64,000 nucleotides of DNA from Escherichia phage HMD-P3, in the sequence record PQ462667.1; one strand, written 5' to 3'. Of the stretch, positions 5,266 to 59,775 are shown in pieces; positions within the stretch are counted from its first letter, which is position 1; each line of letters opens with the position of its first letter. The position numbers were made by a program, and so were the translations under genes. Under the pieces are notes generated by a model. It worked only from the letters and a program-made list of their open reading frames with translations, did no database searches and was not told the origin of the DNA.

Positions 5266-5340
5266 TGGCCGAGGTGACAGGATTCGAACCTGCATAAAGG
5301 AATTTAGAAGACTCCTGCCTCTCCCTTAGACTACACCTCG
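5266..5340 (-). tRNA. tRNA-Arg (anticodon TCT)
   Basis: Sense CGAGGTG...GGAGT-CTTCTAA-ATTCC...GCAGGTTCGAATCCTGT-CACCTCG-G-CCA; anticodon loop CUUCUAA. Confidence 0.8.
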
Positions 5341-21438: not shown

Positions 21439-21628
21439 GGGTTTAAACGCCGCTTTGGAAAACGCATTAATGCAGCGCTGGGAAACTGGCTATAAGGATG
21501 GTGTTGAATCCTGCGCTACTATGCTAGAAGTTATTGCTAATACCTTAATGGAGAAAGGCAATAAAGAATTAGCTGAGCTATTAGACAGTATTGGGCAAAA
21601 CTTCAGAGAACAGGTGAAAAATGCGTAG
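21407..21628 (+). CDS. hypothetical protein (73 aa)
   Basis: Overlapping start/stop with neighbours. Confidence 0.4.
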   Translation: MAFSKPMLPDKGLNAALENALMQRWETGYKDGVESCATMLEVIANTLMEKGNKELAELLDSIGQNFREQVKNA

Positions 21629-22436
21629 ATTAATTATTATTAGTGGTGCAGGTTTGAGTGTTGAAAGTGGTGTACGAGCTTTTCGTACTGATACTGCTAG
21701 CGGTAAAGCATTGTGGGATGATTATGATCTAGAAGAAGTATGTAATATTCATGCCTTTCGCGGTAATTTTTATCATAAAACCCATATGTTTTACAACAAG
21801 CGTCGTGAAGAACTAAAAACTGTTGAACCCAATCTTGCGCATTTGCGTATTGGTGAATGGTATAAACAATATCCAGGTCAAATAGTAAACTTGACTACCA
21901 ATGTTGATGACCTTATTGAGCGTGCTGGCGTTCCACATAGTGACATTCTGCACATTCACGGATATTTAAAAGAGGTTGTTGTAGCTGATAACTACAATAG
22001 TAGCAATAAACGGATTATTGATGTAGGATACAATTCTATTGATCCAGATGATTATAAATGGGTTAAACCTAATGTAATCTTCTTTGGAGAGCATGCTCCA
22101 GCATATGCGGAGATGTACAATGTTTTTGATGGTATTACCAGTCAAGATATGATCATTGTGGTTGGTTGCTCCAACCAAGTAATTAACTTCTACTGGGAAT
22201 TATTTCCTGTTCTTAATTTGACTGCTGCTAAGCTAATGGTTGTTAACTACTATGATAGTGCCCTAGCGGTGGAACCGGGCTATCAAGGTATGACTCGTAG
22301 TGAGATGTATCAACTGGAAGAACGTGGTATCCCTTACTGGAGTAAAGGTGCGGTAGATGCTTTCAGTGATCCTGATTTTATTGCTCGTGTAGAAGCTCAT
22401 TTAGGGGGTAGACCTTATGTATCAGGAACTAAGTAA
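21621..22436 (+). CDS. Sir2-family NAD-dependent deacylase/ADP-ribosyltransferase-like protein lacking the zinc ribbon
   Basis: Sirtuin motifs in order: GAGLSVESGVRAFR, TTNVDDLIERAG, HIHG, VIFFGE, IIVVGCSNQV; the CxxC...CxxC zinc motif is absent. Confidence 0.8.
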   Translation: MRRLIIISGAGLSVESGVRAFRTDTASGKALWDDYDLEEVCNIHAFRGNFYHKTHMFYNKRREELKTVEPNLAHLRIGEWYKQYPGQIVNLTTNVDDLIERAGVPHSDILHIHGYLKEVVVADNYNSSNKRIIDVGYNSIDPDDYKWVKPNVIFFGEHAPAYAEMYNVFDGITSQDMIIVVGCSNQVINFYWELFPVLNLTAAKLMVVNYYDSALAVEPGYQGMTRSEMYQLEERGIPYWSKGAVDAFSDPDFIARVEAHLGGRPYVSGTK

Positions 22437-22929
22437 TACTCCAATTATTTTTCTAGACATTGATGGGGTGCTCAATTCGAGCATCTCCCACCATCATGCA
22501 CCTGATAATGAAAAGATTTTCTTTGGAAGTGACTGGGTTTTCAAACCGCTTCTCAAGGCTTTTCAGGACTTTATTCGTCCTTCTCCAATAATGATTGTTG
22601 GAGTATCATCTTGGTTCTCTGTCAGAAATGAGATGGAGAACGTTCAGATTATGACCGGATTAGGTCTTATCGATCGCTTTCTTGGTACAACGGATTTTAC
22701 TGGTGGTGGATTATCTAGGGGTAATTCTGTTCTTCGTTTCGTCGAAAAGCATAAGCTCAAACATTGGTGTGTACTTGATGATGCGGGTGCTATGATGTAT
22801 CAGTATCCAACGGTTATAGTCAACGGTAGAACTGGGATAAATCTTCAAGATTTAAAAGCTGTTAGCTATATGCTAGAATTTAGCCCAGATCTTGAAATGT
22901 GTAAATCCTTACAACAATTTAAGGTGTAA
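22417..22929 (+). CDS. HAD-superfamily phosphatase-like protein
   Basis: HAD motif I FLDIDGVLN near the N-terminus and a late acidic motif WCVLDDAG. Confidence 0.5.
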   Translation: MYQELSNTPIIFLDIDGVLNSSISHHHAPDNEKIFFGSDWVFKPLLKAFQDFIRPSPIMIVGVSSWFSVRNEMENVQIMTGLGLIDRFLGTTDFTGGGLSRGNSVLRFVEKHKLKHWCVLDDAGAMMYQYPTVIVNGRTGINLQDLKAVSYMLEFSPDLEMCKSLQQFKV

Positions 22930-22931
22930 AT

Positions 22932-23360
22932 ATGTTCAATAATGTATTCTCTAAAGAAGCTAACCCAATTTTGGTTAACTTTTGGCGTACTCTCCCGGCT
23001 AGCCTGTATAATGAGGCTATTAACTCCTTGAAAATATGGTGTGAGAATAACGAAATCTCTTTTGCTTTTAAAGATGATGTTGATGAGGCCCCTTGTATTG
23101 GTTTAAGTGTGCAGGTAGAGGAGGGTCTTGAAGAGATTGTCGGCTGGAAAGAGTTAGATGAAATGGGCTTAGTTTTTGCGTTAAACTATAAGCTGTTTAT
23201 GCCTGCTAAGCATCGCCTCGTTGTTAACTATAAAACTAGTGAATCTCCTGGTTTTCAGGTTAATGAACGTTATGGTTGGTCTTACTCACCGGAAGAAGTA
23301 AATGAGGGGATTCAGAAACTTCGACGTTTCGGGTATATAATCCCAGGTTTAACTGCTTAA
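22932..23360 (+). CDS. hypothetical protein, paralog A of a tandem pair
   Basis: Shares ...SF-F...D-PCIG...W-EL...GL--ALN...F-P...W-Y-P...L-R-G...PGL with the next ORF. Confidence 0.5.
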   Translation: MFNNVFSKEANPILVNFWRTLPASLYNEAINSLKIWCENNEISFAFKDDVDEAPCIGLSVQVEEGLEEIVGWKELDEMGLVFALNYKLFMPAKHRLVVNYKTSESPGFQVNERYGWSYSPEEVNEGIQKLRRFGYIIPGLTA

Positions 23361-23369
23361 GGAGGCAGA

Positions 23370-23759
23370 ATGGAACAAGTATATTGGCGTCAGATTGACC
23401 CTAGTTTGGTGAAACGTGCGGAGAAGCTGCTACAACGTTGGTTGGGGGTAAGACAAGCCTCCTTTACTTTTCCGGAACAGCAAATAGATGACCCCTGCAT
23501 TGGTGTTTTCCTGTCTGGATATGCCGGGGAATGGGAATTGGATTGGAATGAATTGTCTGCTATGGGCTTGATTGTTGCCCTAAACTTCTCTATATTCCAT
23601 CCACGTGGTTTGGCCATATGTCGTGTGCCGGATGATGGTTGTTCGCCCCATCTTTTACAGGTGGAAGATGATATTTGGGAGTACACTCCAGATATTCTCA
23701 AAGAAGCTAAAGAACAATTAAACCGTGTTGGGATCTATGTTCCGGGGTTAAGTGACTAA
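23370..23759 (+). CDS. hypothetical protein, paralog B of a tandem pair
   Basis: Paralogous to 22932-23360 (conserved PCIG, MGL-ALN, VPGL motifs); hairpin plus T-run downstream. Confidence 0.5.
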   Translation: MEQVYWRQIDPSLVKRAEKLLQRWLGVRQASFTFPEQQIDDPCIGVFLSGYAGEWELDWNELSAMGLIVALNFSIFHPRGLAICRVPDDGCSPHLLQVEDDIWEYTPDILKEAKEQLNRVGIYVPGLSD

Positions 23760-24380
23760 TGATTTTTATTAGCTGAACTCTGATTACCGAGTCATTTTGG
23801 CTCGGTTTTCTCTATGCTCAAGGACACTGATAGCACCTTTGGGAAAATTTTACTTGCAGGATGCCCAAAATCTTGATATAATATTTATATTGAATTGAGA
23901 GACATTAGTAAAAATTGATTTTGCTAATTTTTCTTGTTTACAATCCGCGATACGGAACAGTTAGGCTGCCCCATTAAGGGTTGTTTTAACTGTTACGTGT
24001 TAGTTTTTAAACAAATAATTAATAGAATACTTAGCGATCTACATCCCGTAGGAACCCTGGTAAGGCCTCGAAGCAACCTAGTGTGAGGTGGTTGTGAAGT
24101 GAGACGGGAAGAGTGAAAAACTCTGAGAAGTGATGACGTAAGGTATACTGCATCTAGTATGAGCTAGTATATGAAGCATTAGGTGAGCAAATCTGGCTTA
24201 GCGGCCATCCTCAAGGATTTGTGCGGTATAGTGAAGCGGCAGTGTAGCGTGAAAGGGGAAGTTGCCACCCCCCTTCAGTATTTGCGATTAATTGTTGAGA
24301 AATTGACAGTAACAGTTGTTCTATTCTTTCTGAATAGTCCTAAAGAAAACTTATTTCATTTCCAACACAGGAGTATTGTT

Positions 24381-27170
24381 GTGTTCTCAATCCTACAAGG
24401 TCATGCAGGATTTCATCGCGATTTAGCCACAGGCAATTGGCGGGAAGTTAAAGCAGAAAACTATCTTTTTGCTAAAAGATTTTCCTCAAAGCATCCTGAA
24501 GGTAAACCAGCTTCAATGCCCTTCAAGTTTGATGTAATTGATGAAGTTGATCCTCAAACCCTAGTAGAAATGCTCCCTCTTATGAGACGTTTAACGTCTG
24601 ACCCTCATATCGTTGCGGTACGAGGTCGATGTCTTGCACCTAAAAATAATGTGCGACGTAAGAAGGGCAACTTTAATGTATCTAACCCAAGTCATATAAT
24701 TGCAATGGACGTGGATGGTATTGTAGATACAGGTGGTTGTAACAAGTTTGATCTTGTTGGCATGGCTCGACATATTATTAGAATGTTAAATAGTATTAGT
24801 GAGGATATGTTTCCTCTTGATGCAGGGTTTATCGCTCATGCATCGTCTTCGGCTGGGCTAAAACCAGGTATCCGAATGCACTTAATACTAGAATCTAATG
24901 TTAAAGTAACTCAGGGTCAAATCAAATTCTTATTTACATCTATCAACGAAAGTAGTAGACAAAAGTATGGCTTTGATATTGCCGACTTAGCTTATTACTC
25001 TTCCGTACAGCTCCATTATTTTGCAGATCCGTTATTTACTGATGGTATAGTAGATCCGTTTAAAGCGGAGGGTGCTTCACGTCTGGTATTTGTTAAGGGT
25101 TCTAAGGTAAACTTACCCAATAATCTGGTTGATTATGAAACAACTAGAGGTGAGTTTAAAGAGGAGTTTTACTCTTTACTCGACCAAATTAAGGGTAAAA
25201 AAGCTGCCTCTGATAAAGTAGAGGAAACTATCAGCGAACTAGAAGAAGCTGAGGATGGAGTGTACCTACGTATCATACCTAAACTCTATCACAGAGCTTT
25301 AGAGGATGGTGTTGATTTTGCGTGGCTAGAAAAAGAAATCCGTCCAGCCTTATCAGAATATATTGCAACTAAAGATAATAGTCGTAATATTCAAGATTAC
25401 TTTAATAACGGTCGTAAACAGGCTCTGAAAGCGTTTGTTAATAATTCTAAACGCGATATACCTGATGTTTTAAAAGGTATTCCACTTAAAAAGCTAGAAA
25501 CTAATTCTTTAGAAACTGATAACTTCTTGAAATTAAATACTGTACCACCAGAAGGTTATATGACTTTTGTAAAAGCAAGTCTAGGTACAGGTAAAACTAC
25601 GGCGGTTGTGCGTTGGTTAGATTCAGGAGTTATTAAGGGTAATTTCTTAGCAATTACCAATACTCGAGCACTGGTATCTTCAAATGCTAAGAAATTTAGT
25701 GCAGGACAATATGATAAGTCTGTAGATATGCTTAATTTTAAGCGTGGCGCTATTGACCGTATGTCCACAACTATTCACTCTTTGCATAAGTTCAAGAGTT
25801 TTATTGGTCAAATCGATGCAATCTTTATCGATGAATGTGATGCTGTAATGAATGACCTATTATTCGCCCCGGTTGTTAAACAACGTCGTGAATGTATTCA
25901 GGTTCTTCGGGATATTCTTGCAACTGCAAAAATCATTATATTATCTGATGGGGATATTAGTGCTGAAACAATTGAAGCATATGGTTCTTTGATTGAGTTT
26001 GATAAACCGGTTGCATTTTATAATCACCACCGTAAGATGCTGTCAAAAGCTCATGCTTATGAATTCCCTGATGAATCCAGTATTTGGGTTGCACTTCAGA
26101 CTTCTCTAGAGATGGGTGAGAAGTCTATCCTAGTATCTGACTGTGGTCCAGATGAACTGAATGAGAAGGGTATGGCATTGCGTCGTAATACGGGTGCGTT
26201 AGTTAAGGAAATCCACTCAAACTCTACGTCTGATGTAGATATTCGACGTATTCTGGATTACACAACTAATGAGCTAATTGACCAACAAATTGATTGCTTA
26301 TTATGTAGTCCATCCGTAACGAGTGGTGTTGACTTTAACTATTTTGATAACGTATTCGTTATCACTAGAACCTCAAACCAAGCGCCAAACATGCGTTTTC
26401 AAGCAATCAGGCGCGACCGTGGCGCTCAGAACATTTATTATTTTATTGATAAATCTACGAGTGGATTCTCCGCAGGTTCTGAACAATATAACATTGATGA
26501 AGGTTGGCTGGAGTTAGCACAGCAATTATACGCACGTCGTAGGGAGCTGGAATCTAGGAACTATACTAGTACTTTACGTTATTACTTGCTTGATCAGGGT
26601 GCAACTATTGATATTTTCAGTGAAAGCTGGGGAACTATCGAAGGTGCAGGAAAAGAGTATACGGAAGAGCGAATCAAAGCTATTTTGTATTCAACTCCTG
26701 ATTATTGTGCTCCACGCCATGCAGATGCGTATGAGGCTAAACTACTTCTTGTTCGCTATTATCATCTTGAGTCTATTAAAGATGTAACAGTTGAGCACGT
26801 TGAACAATATATCAAGGATAAACCGAATGATCGAGCTGCATTCTTCCATAAGATGCACGAGATGTTCTGGGAAGATATTAAGAAGTGTTCAAATGTCACT
26901 ATCAAACCATTCATAGAAGCTCTGAAAGGTAAGAAGAAAGATTTCTTCCTTAAAACAGGTCAGAGTGCTAACCCAAAATATGCAAGAATGTATCTTGGTA
27001 TGATGGGTATTGGTAAGGATATGAACACTGAAAATATTGTAGACTGGTACAGAACCTATTGTAAAATCGAGTGTATGCCAATCCCGTATAAGTTTATGAC
27101 TGATGAGGAGAAACATATGCATGATGAAGCAATGGCAGAGCTAGGTGCTAGAAATGACAGTGAAGAATAA
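24381..27170 (+). CDS. putative replication initiator / origin-binding P-loop NTPase (helicase-like), about 929 aa
   Basis: Walker A FVKASLGTGKTTAV and Walker B IFIDECDAV in the central region. The track ORF begins at 24183, but the first 66 codons have atypical codon usage and no RBS; an in-frame GTG at 24381 follows ACAGGAG by 8 nt. Start is uncertain. Confidence 0.55.
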   Translation: MFSILQGHAGFHRDLATGNWREVKAENYLFAKRFSSKHPEGKPASMPFKFDVIDEVDPQTLVEMLPLMRRLTSDPHIVAVRGRCLAPKNNVRRKKGNFNVSNPSHIIAMDVDGIVDTGGCNKFDLVGMARHIIRMLNSISEDMFPLDAGFIAHASSSAGLKPGIRMHLILESNVKVTQGQIKFLFTSINESSRQKYGFDIADLAYYSSVQLHYFADPLFTDGIVDPFKAEGASRLVFVKGSKVNLPNNLVDYETTRGEFKEEFYSLLDQIKGKKAASDKVEETISELEEAEDGVYLRIIPKLYHRALEDGVDFAWLEKEIRPALSEYIATKDNSRNIQDYFNNGRKQALKAFVNNSKRDIPDVLKGIPLKKLETNSLETDNFLKLNTVPPEGYMTFVKASLGTGKTTAVVRWLDSGVIKGNFLAITNTRALVSSNAKKFSAGQYDKSVDMLNFKRGAIDRMSTTIHSLHKFKSFIGQIDAIFIDECDAVMNDLLFAPVVKQRRECIQVLRDILATAKIIILSDGDISAETIEAYGSLIEFDKPVAFYNHHRKMLSKAHAYEFPDESSIWVALQTSLEMGEKSILVSDCGPDELNEKGMALRRNTGALVKEIHSNSTSDVDIRRILDYTTNELIDQQIDCLLCSPSVTSGVDFNYFDNVFVITRTSNQAPNMRFQAIRRDRGAQNIYYFIDKSTSGFSAGSEQYNIDEGWLELAQQLYARRRELESRNYTSTLRYYLLDQGATIDIFSESWGTIEGAGKEYTEERIKAILYSTPDYCAPRHADAYEAKLLLVRYYHLESIKDVTVEHVEQYIKDKPNDRAAFFHKMHEMFWEDIKKCSNVTIKPFIEALKGKKKDFFLKTGQSANPKYARMYLGMMGIGKDMNTENIVDWYRTYCKIECMPIPYKFMTDEEKHMHDEAMAELGARNDSEE

Positions 27171-59100: not shown

Positions 59101-59775
59101 TATGGTACCAACAATAGTGCCAAACTGCTCTAACCTGTTTAGCTGATCACCTACTTTTAGGTTCTCAAAAGCAGTCTGTAGGACGTATACGTTAGAAGCA
59201 AAGGCTGCGTATAGTATAGGTAGACGACCACCGATCTTAGCCATTGCCGCAAAATCACGAGTAGCTCCGCGTGCTGAACCGGAAGTATTACCTAAAGCTC
59301 TAGAAGCCCTACCAGCAGCACCAGCAGTATCATTAAAACCTCTAGATGTACCACCTAAAGCTCTATTAGTATCGTATAGCCTATCTTGAACTTTCTCTGT
59401 TGCAGCTGCAACATCATTACCCATTGCTTTAACAGATCTAGAGACTCCATTAAACCCAACCTCTAGTTTATCCGCTACTTCGATCATTGCAATAGCTAGA
59501 TCATCTAACTTAACACCAATACTATCAATGGATTTAGTGATACCAGCCATACCCCTACTAGCTTGCATTTTAGTAAGACTTTTTGCTGCTCTATCCGCTG
59601 CCCTCTCAATGGAGTAAAGGGTTTTGGGCATTTTACCTAACTGCTCGTTTGTCAGTTCGGAAGCAGCAGCAGCGTTTTCTAACGCATCAGATACGTTTTC
59701 AATAGACTTTGCAGTACGAGTTGCCCCCTTCTGCTTAACGTCTATTAGTAATTCTCGTATTAGCTTATCAGTCAT
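56113..59775 (-). CDS. tail tape measure protein (T5 pb2-like, 1220 aa)
   Basis: Very long Ala/Gln/Lys/Glu-rich coiled-coil protein with C-terminal hydrophobic and Gly-rich segments; located between the chaperone pair and Dit. Confidence 0.85.
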   Translation of the reverse strand: MTDKLIRELLIDVKQKGATRTAKSIENVSDALENAAAASELTNEQLGKMPKTLYSIERAADRAAKSLTKMQASRGMAGITKSIDSIGVKLDDLAIAMIEVADKLEVGFNGVSRSVKAMGNDVAAATEKVQDRLYDTNRALGGTSRGFNDTAGAAGRASRALGNTSGSARGATRDFAAMAKIGGRLPILYAAFASNVYVLQTAFENLKVGDQLNRLEQFGTIVGTITGTPVQTLALSLQNATNGAISFEEAMRQASTASAYGFDSEQLEQFGLVARRAAAVLGVDMTDALNRVIKGVSKQEIELLDELGVTIRLNDAYANYVKQLNATSTGIKYTVDSLTTYQRQQAYANEVIAESTRRFGYLDDALKATSWEQFAANANSALRSLQQSAATYLNPVMDTLNTFLYQTKASQSRVSAMARSASAKITPSENVTALIGNAVGAQEDLDTYLKESEERIKKAQEIKQQLDDIKAKQSFTAPFVNALTAFGGLPTDESNLLVVQLTNELARQNKEIEERAKTEKVLRQAVQDTGEALLRNGNLAEQLGAKMKYAATAIPGEKGVFEIDPKNLKAAAEIQKNFDFLKKSSSDTANNIKMAASSITNAKKASSDLNSVVKAIEDTSKITGQSADTLVKDLNLGFTSLDQIKNAQKGLAEYVTAMDKTEQNALEVAKRKDEVYAQTKDKAKAEAAAREVLLRQQQEQLSAAKTLLAINPNDPEALKQVAKIETEILNTKAQGFETAKKVKDQTDKILGIDEEIALLNNRTMTDTQYRLAQLDLELELEGKKTKLYAKQADSQVKLEQSRRAQAQLEREKWEAEKQATATHVSALMDALEVSQTQRNVTGQSQILTERLSILQQQLELSKDNTEEEIKYRNEIYKTSAALEQLKKQREDQKYKSVVSSLGGTFTPTYGLSGADKEFADFENRMSMYDQAIAKMSEVDSASTALANSIGNFSLAVVANAQDSLDSITTISAGMQMVGQMMAYSANQQISAIDQAIAAEQKRDGKSEESKAKIKKLEAEKTKIQQREAKKQIIISTAVAMMNAAATRPFLPLGLTMMATAAAAGALSLAAASGASSIPSVDSGANTTSYLTLGERQKNIDVSMSANAGELSYIRGDKGIGGANSFVPRAEGGNMYPGVSYQMGEHGTEVVTPMVPMKSTPNDELKTSSNSTSGRPIILNISAMDAASFREFASSNSGALRDAVELALNENGASLKTLGNS

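Follow-up and report, generated by a model that had tools for sequence, protein, structure and literature searches.

Folded RNAs and allelic segments of related kinds are known from several systems. RNA II of ColE1/pMB1 and the R-loop transcripts of the phage T4 origins oriF and oriG are promoter-driven, folded, G-rich transcripts of several hundred nucleotides that lie near replication functions and change rapidly in sequence while their helices are kept. In rRNA processing stems and in the RNase III sites of phages T7 and lambda, a long stem made from strands hundreds of nucleotides apart encloses folded RNA, and the T7 and lambda sites are part of early phage transcripts in an enterobacterial host. 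The targets of T4 gp32, gp43 and RegA and the MS2 replicase operator are 5' RNA elements of replication-protein mRNAs with possible pairing to the start codon. GOLLD and ROOL are associated with phages and prophages and, like OLE, raiA and HEARO, are hundreds of nucleotides long and combine many covarying helices with few invariant nucleotides. Finally, the lambdoid specificity modules (origin iterons plus the O N-terminal domain) place a diverged, "allelic" segment at the initiator gene of otherwise similar genomes. Here, we describe a locus that is like each of these in part, i.e., the gap at 23760-24380 (620 bases) in a 64,000-nucleotide stretch of Escherichia phage HMD-P3 (PQ462667.1; this whole stretch is the window). 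The gap lies between a T5.107-like DUF7415 gene, with its stop at 23759, and D2, a replication helicase gene.

Comparisons among relatives show that the + strand of this gap specifies a predicted RNA structure that is kept by selection, occurs in T5-like phages only and is always located directly upstream of D2. As judged from its predicted folds, the ~490-nt leader is a + strand RNA of complex structure. A structured 5' leader had been one of the suggestions of the initial annotation, and this suggestion is strongly supported by covarying helices, strand-specific pairing, and the recurrence of the same architecture in clades that cannot be aligned. In contrast to the translational operators mentioned above, which are single hairpins or pseudoknots of 20-40 nt, the domain in the T5 leader comprises ~330 nt and more than 12 helices. 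From its 5' end, the leader is arranged in the order H0, H1, the ~330-nt domain (23988-24317), P8, a 40-nt spacer, the Shine-Dalgarno (SD) sequence and the GUG start:

23897-23935, + strand: H0, a 5'-proximal hairpin, GAGAGA...UUAGUAAAA/UUUUGCUAA...UUUUCUU, with TTGATT in its loop, present in all clade folds
23951-23969, + strand: H1, a near-invariant block, UACGGAACAGUUAGGCUGC, with a 4-bp hairpin (CAGU/GCUG), outside P1, recognized by conservation
23988-24031, + strand: 5' strand of P1, the imperfect ~40-bp rod at the base of the domain (arm duplex; 16 of 16 curated pairs covary)
24034-24049, + strand: 5' strands of P2o, P2 and P3, GCG-AU-CUACAU-CCCGU (RNAalifold on plain MAFFT output; covariation in 12 of 14 curated pairs)
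24050-24108, + strand: P3 sub-domain with the hairpins P3a and P3b (24073-78/24090-95), a GA-rich junction, and the 3' strand of P3, ACGGG (24104-08), from nine-clade folds
24110-24124, + strand: P4 hairpin, AGAGU-GAAAA-ACUCU, in which AGAGU/ACUCU changes to GGAGU/ACUCC and other variants
24125-24143, + strand: conserved junction after P4, GAGAAGUGAU...GUAAG (conservation)
24144-24230, + strand: P5 domain, in which the P5 helix (24144-51 with 24223-30) encloses the variable hairpin P5a and P6 (covariation)
24187-24222, + strand: P6, an asymmetric hairpin composed of an outer stem of 8 bp, an internal loop on the 3' side, AUCCUCAA, and the apical GGCU-UAGC-GGCC (folds, covariation)
24242-24250, + strand: 3' strands of P2 and P2o, GUGUAG-CGU, with a conserved CAG just before (RNAalifold, curated pairs)
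24253-24275, + strand: P7 hairpin, AAGGGG...CCCCUU, which forms the third arm of the junction with P1 and P2 (covariation in 5 of 6 pairs)
24277-24317, + strand: 3' strand of P1 (arm duplex, covariation)
24321-24337, + strand: P8 hairpin, CUAUUC-UUUCU-GAAUAG (clade folds, curated pairs)
24364-24385, + strand: translation initiation region with AACAC (24364-68), the SD AGGAG (24369-73) and GUG at 24381 (conserved SD and start)
24381-27170, + strand: D2, 929 amino acids, a bipolar SF2 helicase (T5 homology; PF02399 Herpes_ori_bp at residues 394-533)

At its inner end, P1 is predicted to open into a three-way junction with P7 and a 217-nt multi-helix domain (P2-P6). This domain consists of P2 stacked on P3, with two hairpins in P3, then P4, and finally P5, which encloses the variable hairpin and P6. 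P1 is present in all nine clades, where it measures 30-40 bp with small internal loops, i.e., at least the ~two helical turns that an RNase III stem needs. For the P3 sub-domain, the constrained and free folds of the nine clades concur. H1 is the most conserved stretch of the leader and has a single compensatory change, CGGU/GCCG in Pantoea phage AAS21. In H0, three of nine inner pairs have double changes, and pairing holds in 99.4% of cells. All six curated pairs of P5 covary, e.g., GUCCAG/CUGGAU versus GUACAG/CUGUAU, and in P7 AAGGGG/CCCCUU is replaced by AAGUGG/CCACUU, GGUAUG/CAUACU and other variants. The outer stem of P6 differs in every clade, and 8 of 10 sequences still self-fold to the same shape with a 3' internal loop of 7-10 nt; at the apex of P6, CUUAGCGG (24197-24204) is invariant even where the D2 proteins of relatives are 65% identical.

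Other pairings and roles of these parts were considered and rejected. H1 can pair with the 5' strand of P1 as an inverted repeat, or with GCGGC in the P5/P2 junction, in some clades only. P8 does not qualify as a terminator because no U-run follows the hairpin. In two clades (L029 and L040), the 3' internal loop of P6 (window 24207-24214) reads CCUCCUUAA or UCUCCUUAG, which is almost the anti-Shine-Dalgarno 3' end of 16S rRNA. This loop, CCUCCUUA in these two clades, was rejected as an SD-pairing element because it is not conserved in class B, L005 and L028.

Evidence for a selected fold comes from folding energies, from the agreement among clades and from covariation. The domain (23986-24320) has a minimum free energy of -100.8 kcal/mol with a z-score of -3.83, and none of 100 shuffled sequences folded as well. 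Over 23945-24385, the + strand folds at -123.3 kcal/mol, 23 kcal/mol lower than the - strand at -100.1 kcal/mol. Unconstrained folds of eight to nine clade representatives with unalignable cores arrive at the same architecture, and constraining the folds to the common helices costs only 0.1-8 kcal/mol extra. A plain MAFFT alignment of 12 sequences, evaluated with RNAalifold, recovered H1, P2, P3 and the apex of P6, with double changes in 13 of 24 pairs; over the whole leader this procedure recovers only these helices because the cores do not align. Therefore, the strands of 15 helices were extracted from per-sequence folds, other loci were mapped onto the nearest representative, and the stems were joined as a gapless pseudo-alignment of 20 distinct sequences. 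In this curated set, 97.9% of 1590 cells are standard pairs compared to 75.0 ± 0.7 when partners are shuffled and 37-46% when strands are slid by 1-3 columns. Both sides have changed in 69 of the 83 pairs versus 38.7 in shuffles, and the covariation score of 0.600 (0.183 in shuffles) was reached by 0 of 500 shuffles.

P1 was also evaluated by a register-free control in which 50 nt upstream of P2 and 55 nt downstream of P7 from nine representatives were compared with shuffled arms. The arms pair at -28 to -38 kcal/mol compared to -11 to -16 kcal/mol after shuffling (z -3.6 to -9.6; 0-1 in 1000), and the arm duplex of the window reaches -33.8 kcal/mol versus -10.9 ± 2.8 kcal/mol. Arms taken from different clades do not pair with each other (-7 to -19 kcal/mol). 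Moreover, the non-Watson-Crick cells comprise 191 G·U and 6 A·C combinations. Because G·U is far above A·C, the conserved pairing is that of + strand RNA and not that of a protein-bound DNA inverted repeat.

The comparisons also show that the core enclosed by P1 is a fast-evolving, hypervariable cassette in which the predicted structure is preserved. Among 442 phage records that match 23940-24385, 163 match at full length; in the others, which also extend over ~444 nt, only the ends match (31-36% of the query). Nearly invariant in the alignment are the promoter, ~100 nt at the start, ~60 nt at the end and the motifs UACGGAACAGUUAGGCUGC, GAUC and GCUUAGCGGC, whereas the ~330 nt between the conserved ends are unalignable but equal in length. 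In a sliding comparison with phages such as T5 (L024), L016 and L025, identity to the window drops to 53-62% across 23980-24280, compared to 90-100% in the surrounding 2 kb. There are at least three deep alleles with identical flanks, i.e., A (the window), B (T5) and C (phiR2-01), and DT57C differs in its allele from its sibling phage DT571/2. Hypervariability of this cassette-like kind, with deep alleles in near-identical genomes, is not usual for leaders and points to selection on specificity. The segment differs from the lambdoid modules in that it keeps RNA pairing, with G·U well in excess of A·C, lacks repeats, and is not strictly coupled to the N-terminal (5') allele of D2, from which it is separated in one locus (L015).

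Some relatives have an optional insertion of 97 nt between H0 and H1 (L002:3133-3229 in DT57C, also in L004, L005, L010 and L027), which corresponds to ~23933/23934 in the window and is present in ~51 of 522 matching phage records. The direct repeat TTTTTCTT is found on its flanks, and the insertion is predicted to self-fold with the closing helix GUGAAGCU/AGCUUUAC. This insertion may represent a small RNA module that is mobile or can be deleted.

The predicted RNA is an undescribed family of large structured RNA that is specific to T5-like phages. All 535 phage records that match 23700-24450 are T5-like (Demerecviridae, Markadamsvirinae), with Salmonella phage SP33 as the top match (98.7%). 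At all 40 loci, the RNA lies upstream of D2 on the same strand, and in T5-type phages no terminator separates the two. A search against Rfam 15 (4227 models, including RNase P, 6S, tmRNA, riboswitches, GOLLD, ROOL, OLE, HEARO, raiA and Y RNA) gave no family match. The best hit was the archaeal C/D snoRNA sR17 at 17.4 bits versus a gathering threshold of 36 (E 0.12-0.46), and nothing else had E ≤ 1; such permissive hits were dismissed as chance C/D-box-like matches from GA-rich junctions. A likeness of H1 and P6 to the CR-IV and CR-V strings of RNase P was rejected as well, given that no RNase P model matches and the structural contexts differ. Scanning the gap for tRNA and tmRNA yielded nothing. 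In IMG/VR, the H1 motif occurs in T5-like contigs only, save for 11 GC-rich coding hits without the second motif; across 185,579 bacterial and archaeal genomes, it gave only chance hits of the GC-rich coding type. The two-motif pattern was found in a metagenome collection in eight T5-like contigs, together with five GC-rich chance hits. Literature searches returned no description of this RNA. Compared to GOLLD, ROOL, OLE, raiA and HEARO, none of whose Rfam models match, the T5 element is part of an mRNA leader rather than standalone or tRNA-adjacent, and it is confined to one phage subfamily.

Six divergent relatives (L028, L029, L032, L040, L041 and Pantoea phage AAS21; D2 65-78% identical) keep the promoter, the 5' hairpin, the long rod and the CUUAGCGG hairpin. 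The Vibrio Demerecviridae, in which D2 is 26-37% identical, have a promoter and a gap of 600-730 nt before the gene, without a shared motif. In Vibrio phage PG07 (L045:1224-1859), the analogous gap upstream of the D2 homologue measures 636 nt and includes two copies of an exact direct repeat of ~56 nt, GACTATCACTTTGTAGCCTCAATCCTCGGATTGTGTGAGTCAGTTAACTTCTGTCG. Proteus phage Stubb has the consensus promoter TTGACA-17-TATAAT (L041:2434-2462) ~40 nt before the ribosome-binding site (RBS) of D2 and downstream of a structured leader of ~700 nt; transcription from this promoter could give a D2 mRNA that lacks the RNA.

Two transcription signals precede H0:

23786-23811, + strand: intrinsic terminator of the upstream operon with a 9-bp stem, a 3-nt loop and a T-run (terminator scan; conserved in the alignment)
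23854-23882, + strand: early sigma-70-type promoter, TTGCAG-17-TATAAT, with an A/T tract upstream (conserved; annotated in T5 records)

Both had been proposed in the initial annotation, as a terminator-like hairpin with T-run after the upstream operon and as a T5-type promoter element ("tgatataat...ttgaattgagagac"), and both are real. The hairpin, ACCGAGTCA-TTT-TGGCTCGGT (23786-23806) followed by the T-run, was found by the scan, is conserved, and is annotated in the records of T5 (NC_005859) and phage Lindwurm. In the promoter, the -35 hexamer TTGCAG (23854-59) and the -10 hexamer TATAAT (23877-82) are 17 nt apart. The site is annotated in two T5 records, and TTGCNN-16/18-TAWAAT is found at the equivalent place in 38 of 39 relatives, including loci in which spacer and flanks differ. 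Transcription would start at ~23887-23890. By contrast, the second promoter proposed at 23915-44, TTGATT-18-TACAAT, did not hold up. It scores only 9/12, and such sites are not in excess over shuffles (five promoter-like sites in the region versus 3.7 ± 1.9). Its TTGATT is the loop of the conserved hairpin H0, its two halves are split by the 97-nt insertion in DT57C, DT571/2 and phiR2-01, and more distant relatives lack the site. The G/A-rich stretch said to differ from its surroundings does represent a genuine shift in composition, but it extends over ~245 nt (24031-24275) and not 350. The GC content of this stretch is 49% versus 31-33% in the flanks, its purine content of 58.4% is in the top 3% of 245-nt windows, and G (30.6%) exceeds C (18.4%), giving a GC skew of ~+0.3. 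G clusters are few and G runs are short, and a composition of this kind is also usual for folded RNAs.

At the other end of the leader, the preference for the RBS-supported GTG at 24381 over an artefactual start at 24183 was confirmed. The open reading frame (ORF) extension from GTG 24183 is open in only 4 of 40 loci, i.e., the window and three near-identical loci, and other relatives have an in-frame stop 6-126 nt upstream of the conserved AGGAG-N7-start. Alignments of D2 by tblastn start at residue 1 of the 929-residue form down to 65% identity, and the biochemically characterized D2 protein was cloned from the GTG at 24381. The view of the gap as non-coding was also upheld: between the stop at 23759 and GTG 24381, neither strand has an ORF of at least 20 amino acids whose length or position is conserved among clades. 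It is extremely unlikely that the gap encodes protein, either as an N-terminal extension of D2 from 24183 or as small ORFs. While the frame from GTG 24183 is open in the window and some GenBank entries place "hypothetical proteins" there, that frame is closed at the other loci, conserved ORFs are lacking, and indels are not multiples of three. In many deposited T5-like genomes, 1-5 "hypothetical proteins" are annotated within the gap, and these look like gene-caller artefacts over non-coding RNA. In practical terms, many GenBank records show false "hypothetical proteins" in this gap or misplace the start of D2 there.

A candidate 5-bp helix, AACAC/GUGUU, would include the D2 start codon. The base preceding the SD tracks the start codon, i.e., it is C with GUG, U with AUG (L028) and A with UUG (L006), with a wobble in L003. 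The AACAN/NUGUU helix is broken in L029 and L032, and it is local, without a link to the folded domain. This start-codon helix is suggestive only.

Because the RNA is always the 5' leader of D2 and no terminator lies between the two in T5-type phages, a cis-acting element is the most economical reading. We suggest, with confidence that is evenly balanced, that the gap is the template for a ~490-nt leader of the D2 mRNA that serves as a cis-acting post-transcriptional element. In this model, the upstream operon would terminate at 23786-23811 and host RNA polymerase would start at the early promoter at 23854-82. The transcript would then fold into H0, H1 and the ~330-nt domain closed by the P1 rod, and the leader would act at the RNA level on D2 expression. 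It may provide a platform for a protein, either D2 itself or another early protein, and/or P1 may be a double-strand-specific (RNase III-type) processing site. Protein binding or processing would determine how stable the D2 mRNA is and how it is translated, and processing might also free the folded core as a stable RNA.

Several points weigh against this model. The function of the leader is argued from its position and anatomy, and the curated helix strands were hand-picked, so that the counts derived from them lean towards structure. A fold of 330 nt with 12 or more helices far exceeds known translational operators in size, and no conserved helix from within the domain that would sequester the RBS was found. 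H1, the most conserved element, is outside P1 and, therefore, a picture of excision at P1 is incomplete. The comparison with RNase III stems has further limits: P1 is imperfect and a putative site only, and the RNA that it encloses is no known stable RNA. Finally, Stubb has its consensus promoter between the RNA and D2, and ~150 extra nt intervene in L032 and L039; thus, D2 expression need not depend on the leader.

Some of the same observations bear on a different reading, in which the core, alone or with H1, is a trans-acting noncoding RNA or ribonucleoprotein scaffold, i.e., a stable RNA that merely shares the D2 promoter and, for instance, binds a phage or host protein, acts as a decoy against host defence, or is catalytic. 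Its size and number of helices are like those of large complex bacterial and phage RNAs and not those of operators, its long closing rod resembles the processing stems of stable RNAs, and invariant loops (CUUAGCGG and H1) stand amid freely changing sequence. The independent D2 promoter downstream of the RNA in Stubb fits as well, and deep alleles A, B and C in genomes that are otherwise 90-100% identical are expected under diversifying selection. However, in T5-type phages the RNA has neither a terminator nor a defined 3' end, it invariably accompanies D2 on the same strand, there is no evident gene for a partner protein, and no copy was found outside T5-like phages in the viral, genome and metagenome scans. 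We consider a trans-acting RNA unlikely. A small RNA, which had also been suggested in the initial annotation, would likewise be without a terminator after the structure in T5-type phages; the ~40-bp closing rod could be a processing site for it, and Stubb has a promoter between the RNA and D2. A broader proposal, which we put forward tentatively and regard as somewhat unlikely, is that the leader represents a new class of large complex phage RNA with a function of its own beyond D2 translation. Such an RNA might be a cis element for T5 initiation, i.e., a primer or loading RNA recognized by D2, or a specificity or anti-defence RNA with alleles under diversifying selection. A metabolite-sensing riboswitch that controls D2 is very unlikely: a structured 5' untranslated region before a single gene and the possible start-codon pairing would suit it, but a core that is 53-62% identical between phages 90-100% identical around it, with only ~25 invariant nucleotides, would not, and neither a riboswitch family match nor a terminator or anti-RBS expression platform linked to the domain was found.

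A role in replication must be considered at two levels. For the replication origin that had been suggested at this site, support at the DNA level is lacking. The gap is without iterons, repeat families above chance and tandem repeats (TRF), no DnaA box lies within 2.6 kb, and A/T-rich sequence as in unwinding elements is limited to the P1 arms. Cumulative GC skew has its minimum at ~17-18 kb, ~6 kb away, and its maximum at ~46 kb, both at switches in gene orientation and not at the D2 leader, and the conserved pairing is of the RNA type. At the RNA level, the structured, G-rich transcript could hybridize to the template near the initiator gene and prime or open a T5 origin, with D2 acting on the hybrid. 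ColE1 RNA II, too, requires a folded RNA. The element lies immediately upstream of a gene for a UL9-like initiator/helicase, D2 being labelled "replication origin binding protein" for the similarity of its residues 394-533 to herpesvirus UL9. It is also at a mid-genome site (D2 starts at 59545 of 121750 in T5), and a strong promoter reads into a core in which G exceeds C. Moreover, we found no sequence-level map of T5 origins in the literature. This primer reading is nevertheless improbable in view of the missing origin features, the location of the skew minimum, the few G clusters and the separability of the RNA allele from the D2 N-terminal allele. It is also at odds with recombitron editing in T5, which points to dominantly unidirectional replication from one genome end. 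In contrast to ColE1 RNA II and the T4 R-loop transcripts, the T5 leader continues into a protein gene, and no partner like the antisense RNA I was seen, a crude consensus scan having found no promoter-like site on the - strand in 23300-24800.

In T5, a classical model phage, the initiation of replication and the control of early genes are still not well understood, and T5-like phages are common in therapy and biocontrol collections. An unannotated RNA of ~330 nt with more than a dozen covarying helices before the gene of a replication helicase is a concrete and testable element. The leader RNA could explain the timing or limits of D2 expression, could mark an origin, or could be a new functional RNA.

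The D2 protein itself has a conserved N-terminal domain. In residues 1-390 (24381-25550), D110-x-D112 and S155-x-S157-x-G159-x-K161...R165-x-H167 are kept down to 26% identity, and the domain has no match in Pfam and none in the PDB by profile search. Presumably, these motifs resemble those of archaeo-eukaryotic primase-polymerases. In some GenBank records, the D2 protein is named "DNA primase."

Upstream of the gap and at the left end of the window, the following genes were assigned:

22417-22929, upstream operon: gene with a HAD_SAK_2 domain ("Swiss Army Knife RNA repair" HAD), by Pfam
22932-23360 and 23370-23759, upstream operon: two DUF7415 paralogues, by Pfam
974-1050, 1638-1726 and 5266-5340, - strand: tRNA genes Leu-UAA, Ser-GCU and Arg-UCU in the T5-type tRNA region at the left window end

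The upstream operon (21621-23759) also encodes a Sir2-like protein, a name taken from relatives, and it is possible that this operon is an RNA-repair or anti-defence module adjoining the structured RNA. In some T5-like GenBank records, the neighbors are mislabelled, e.g., as "tail tube protein" or "U3 snoRNA-associated protein."

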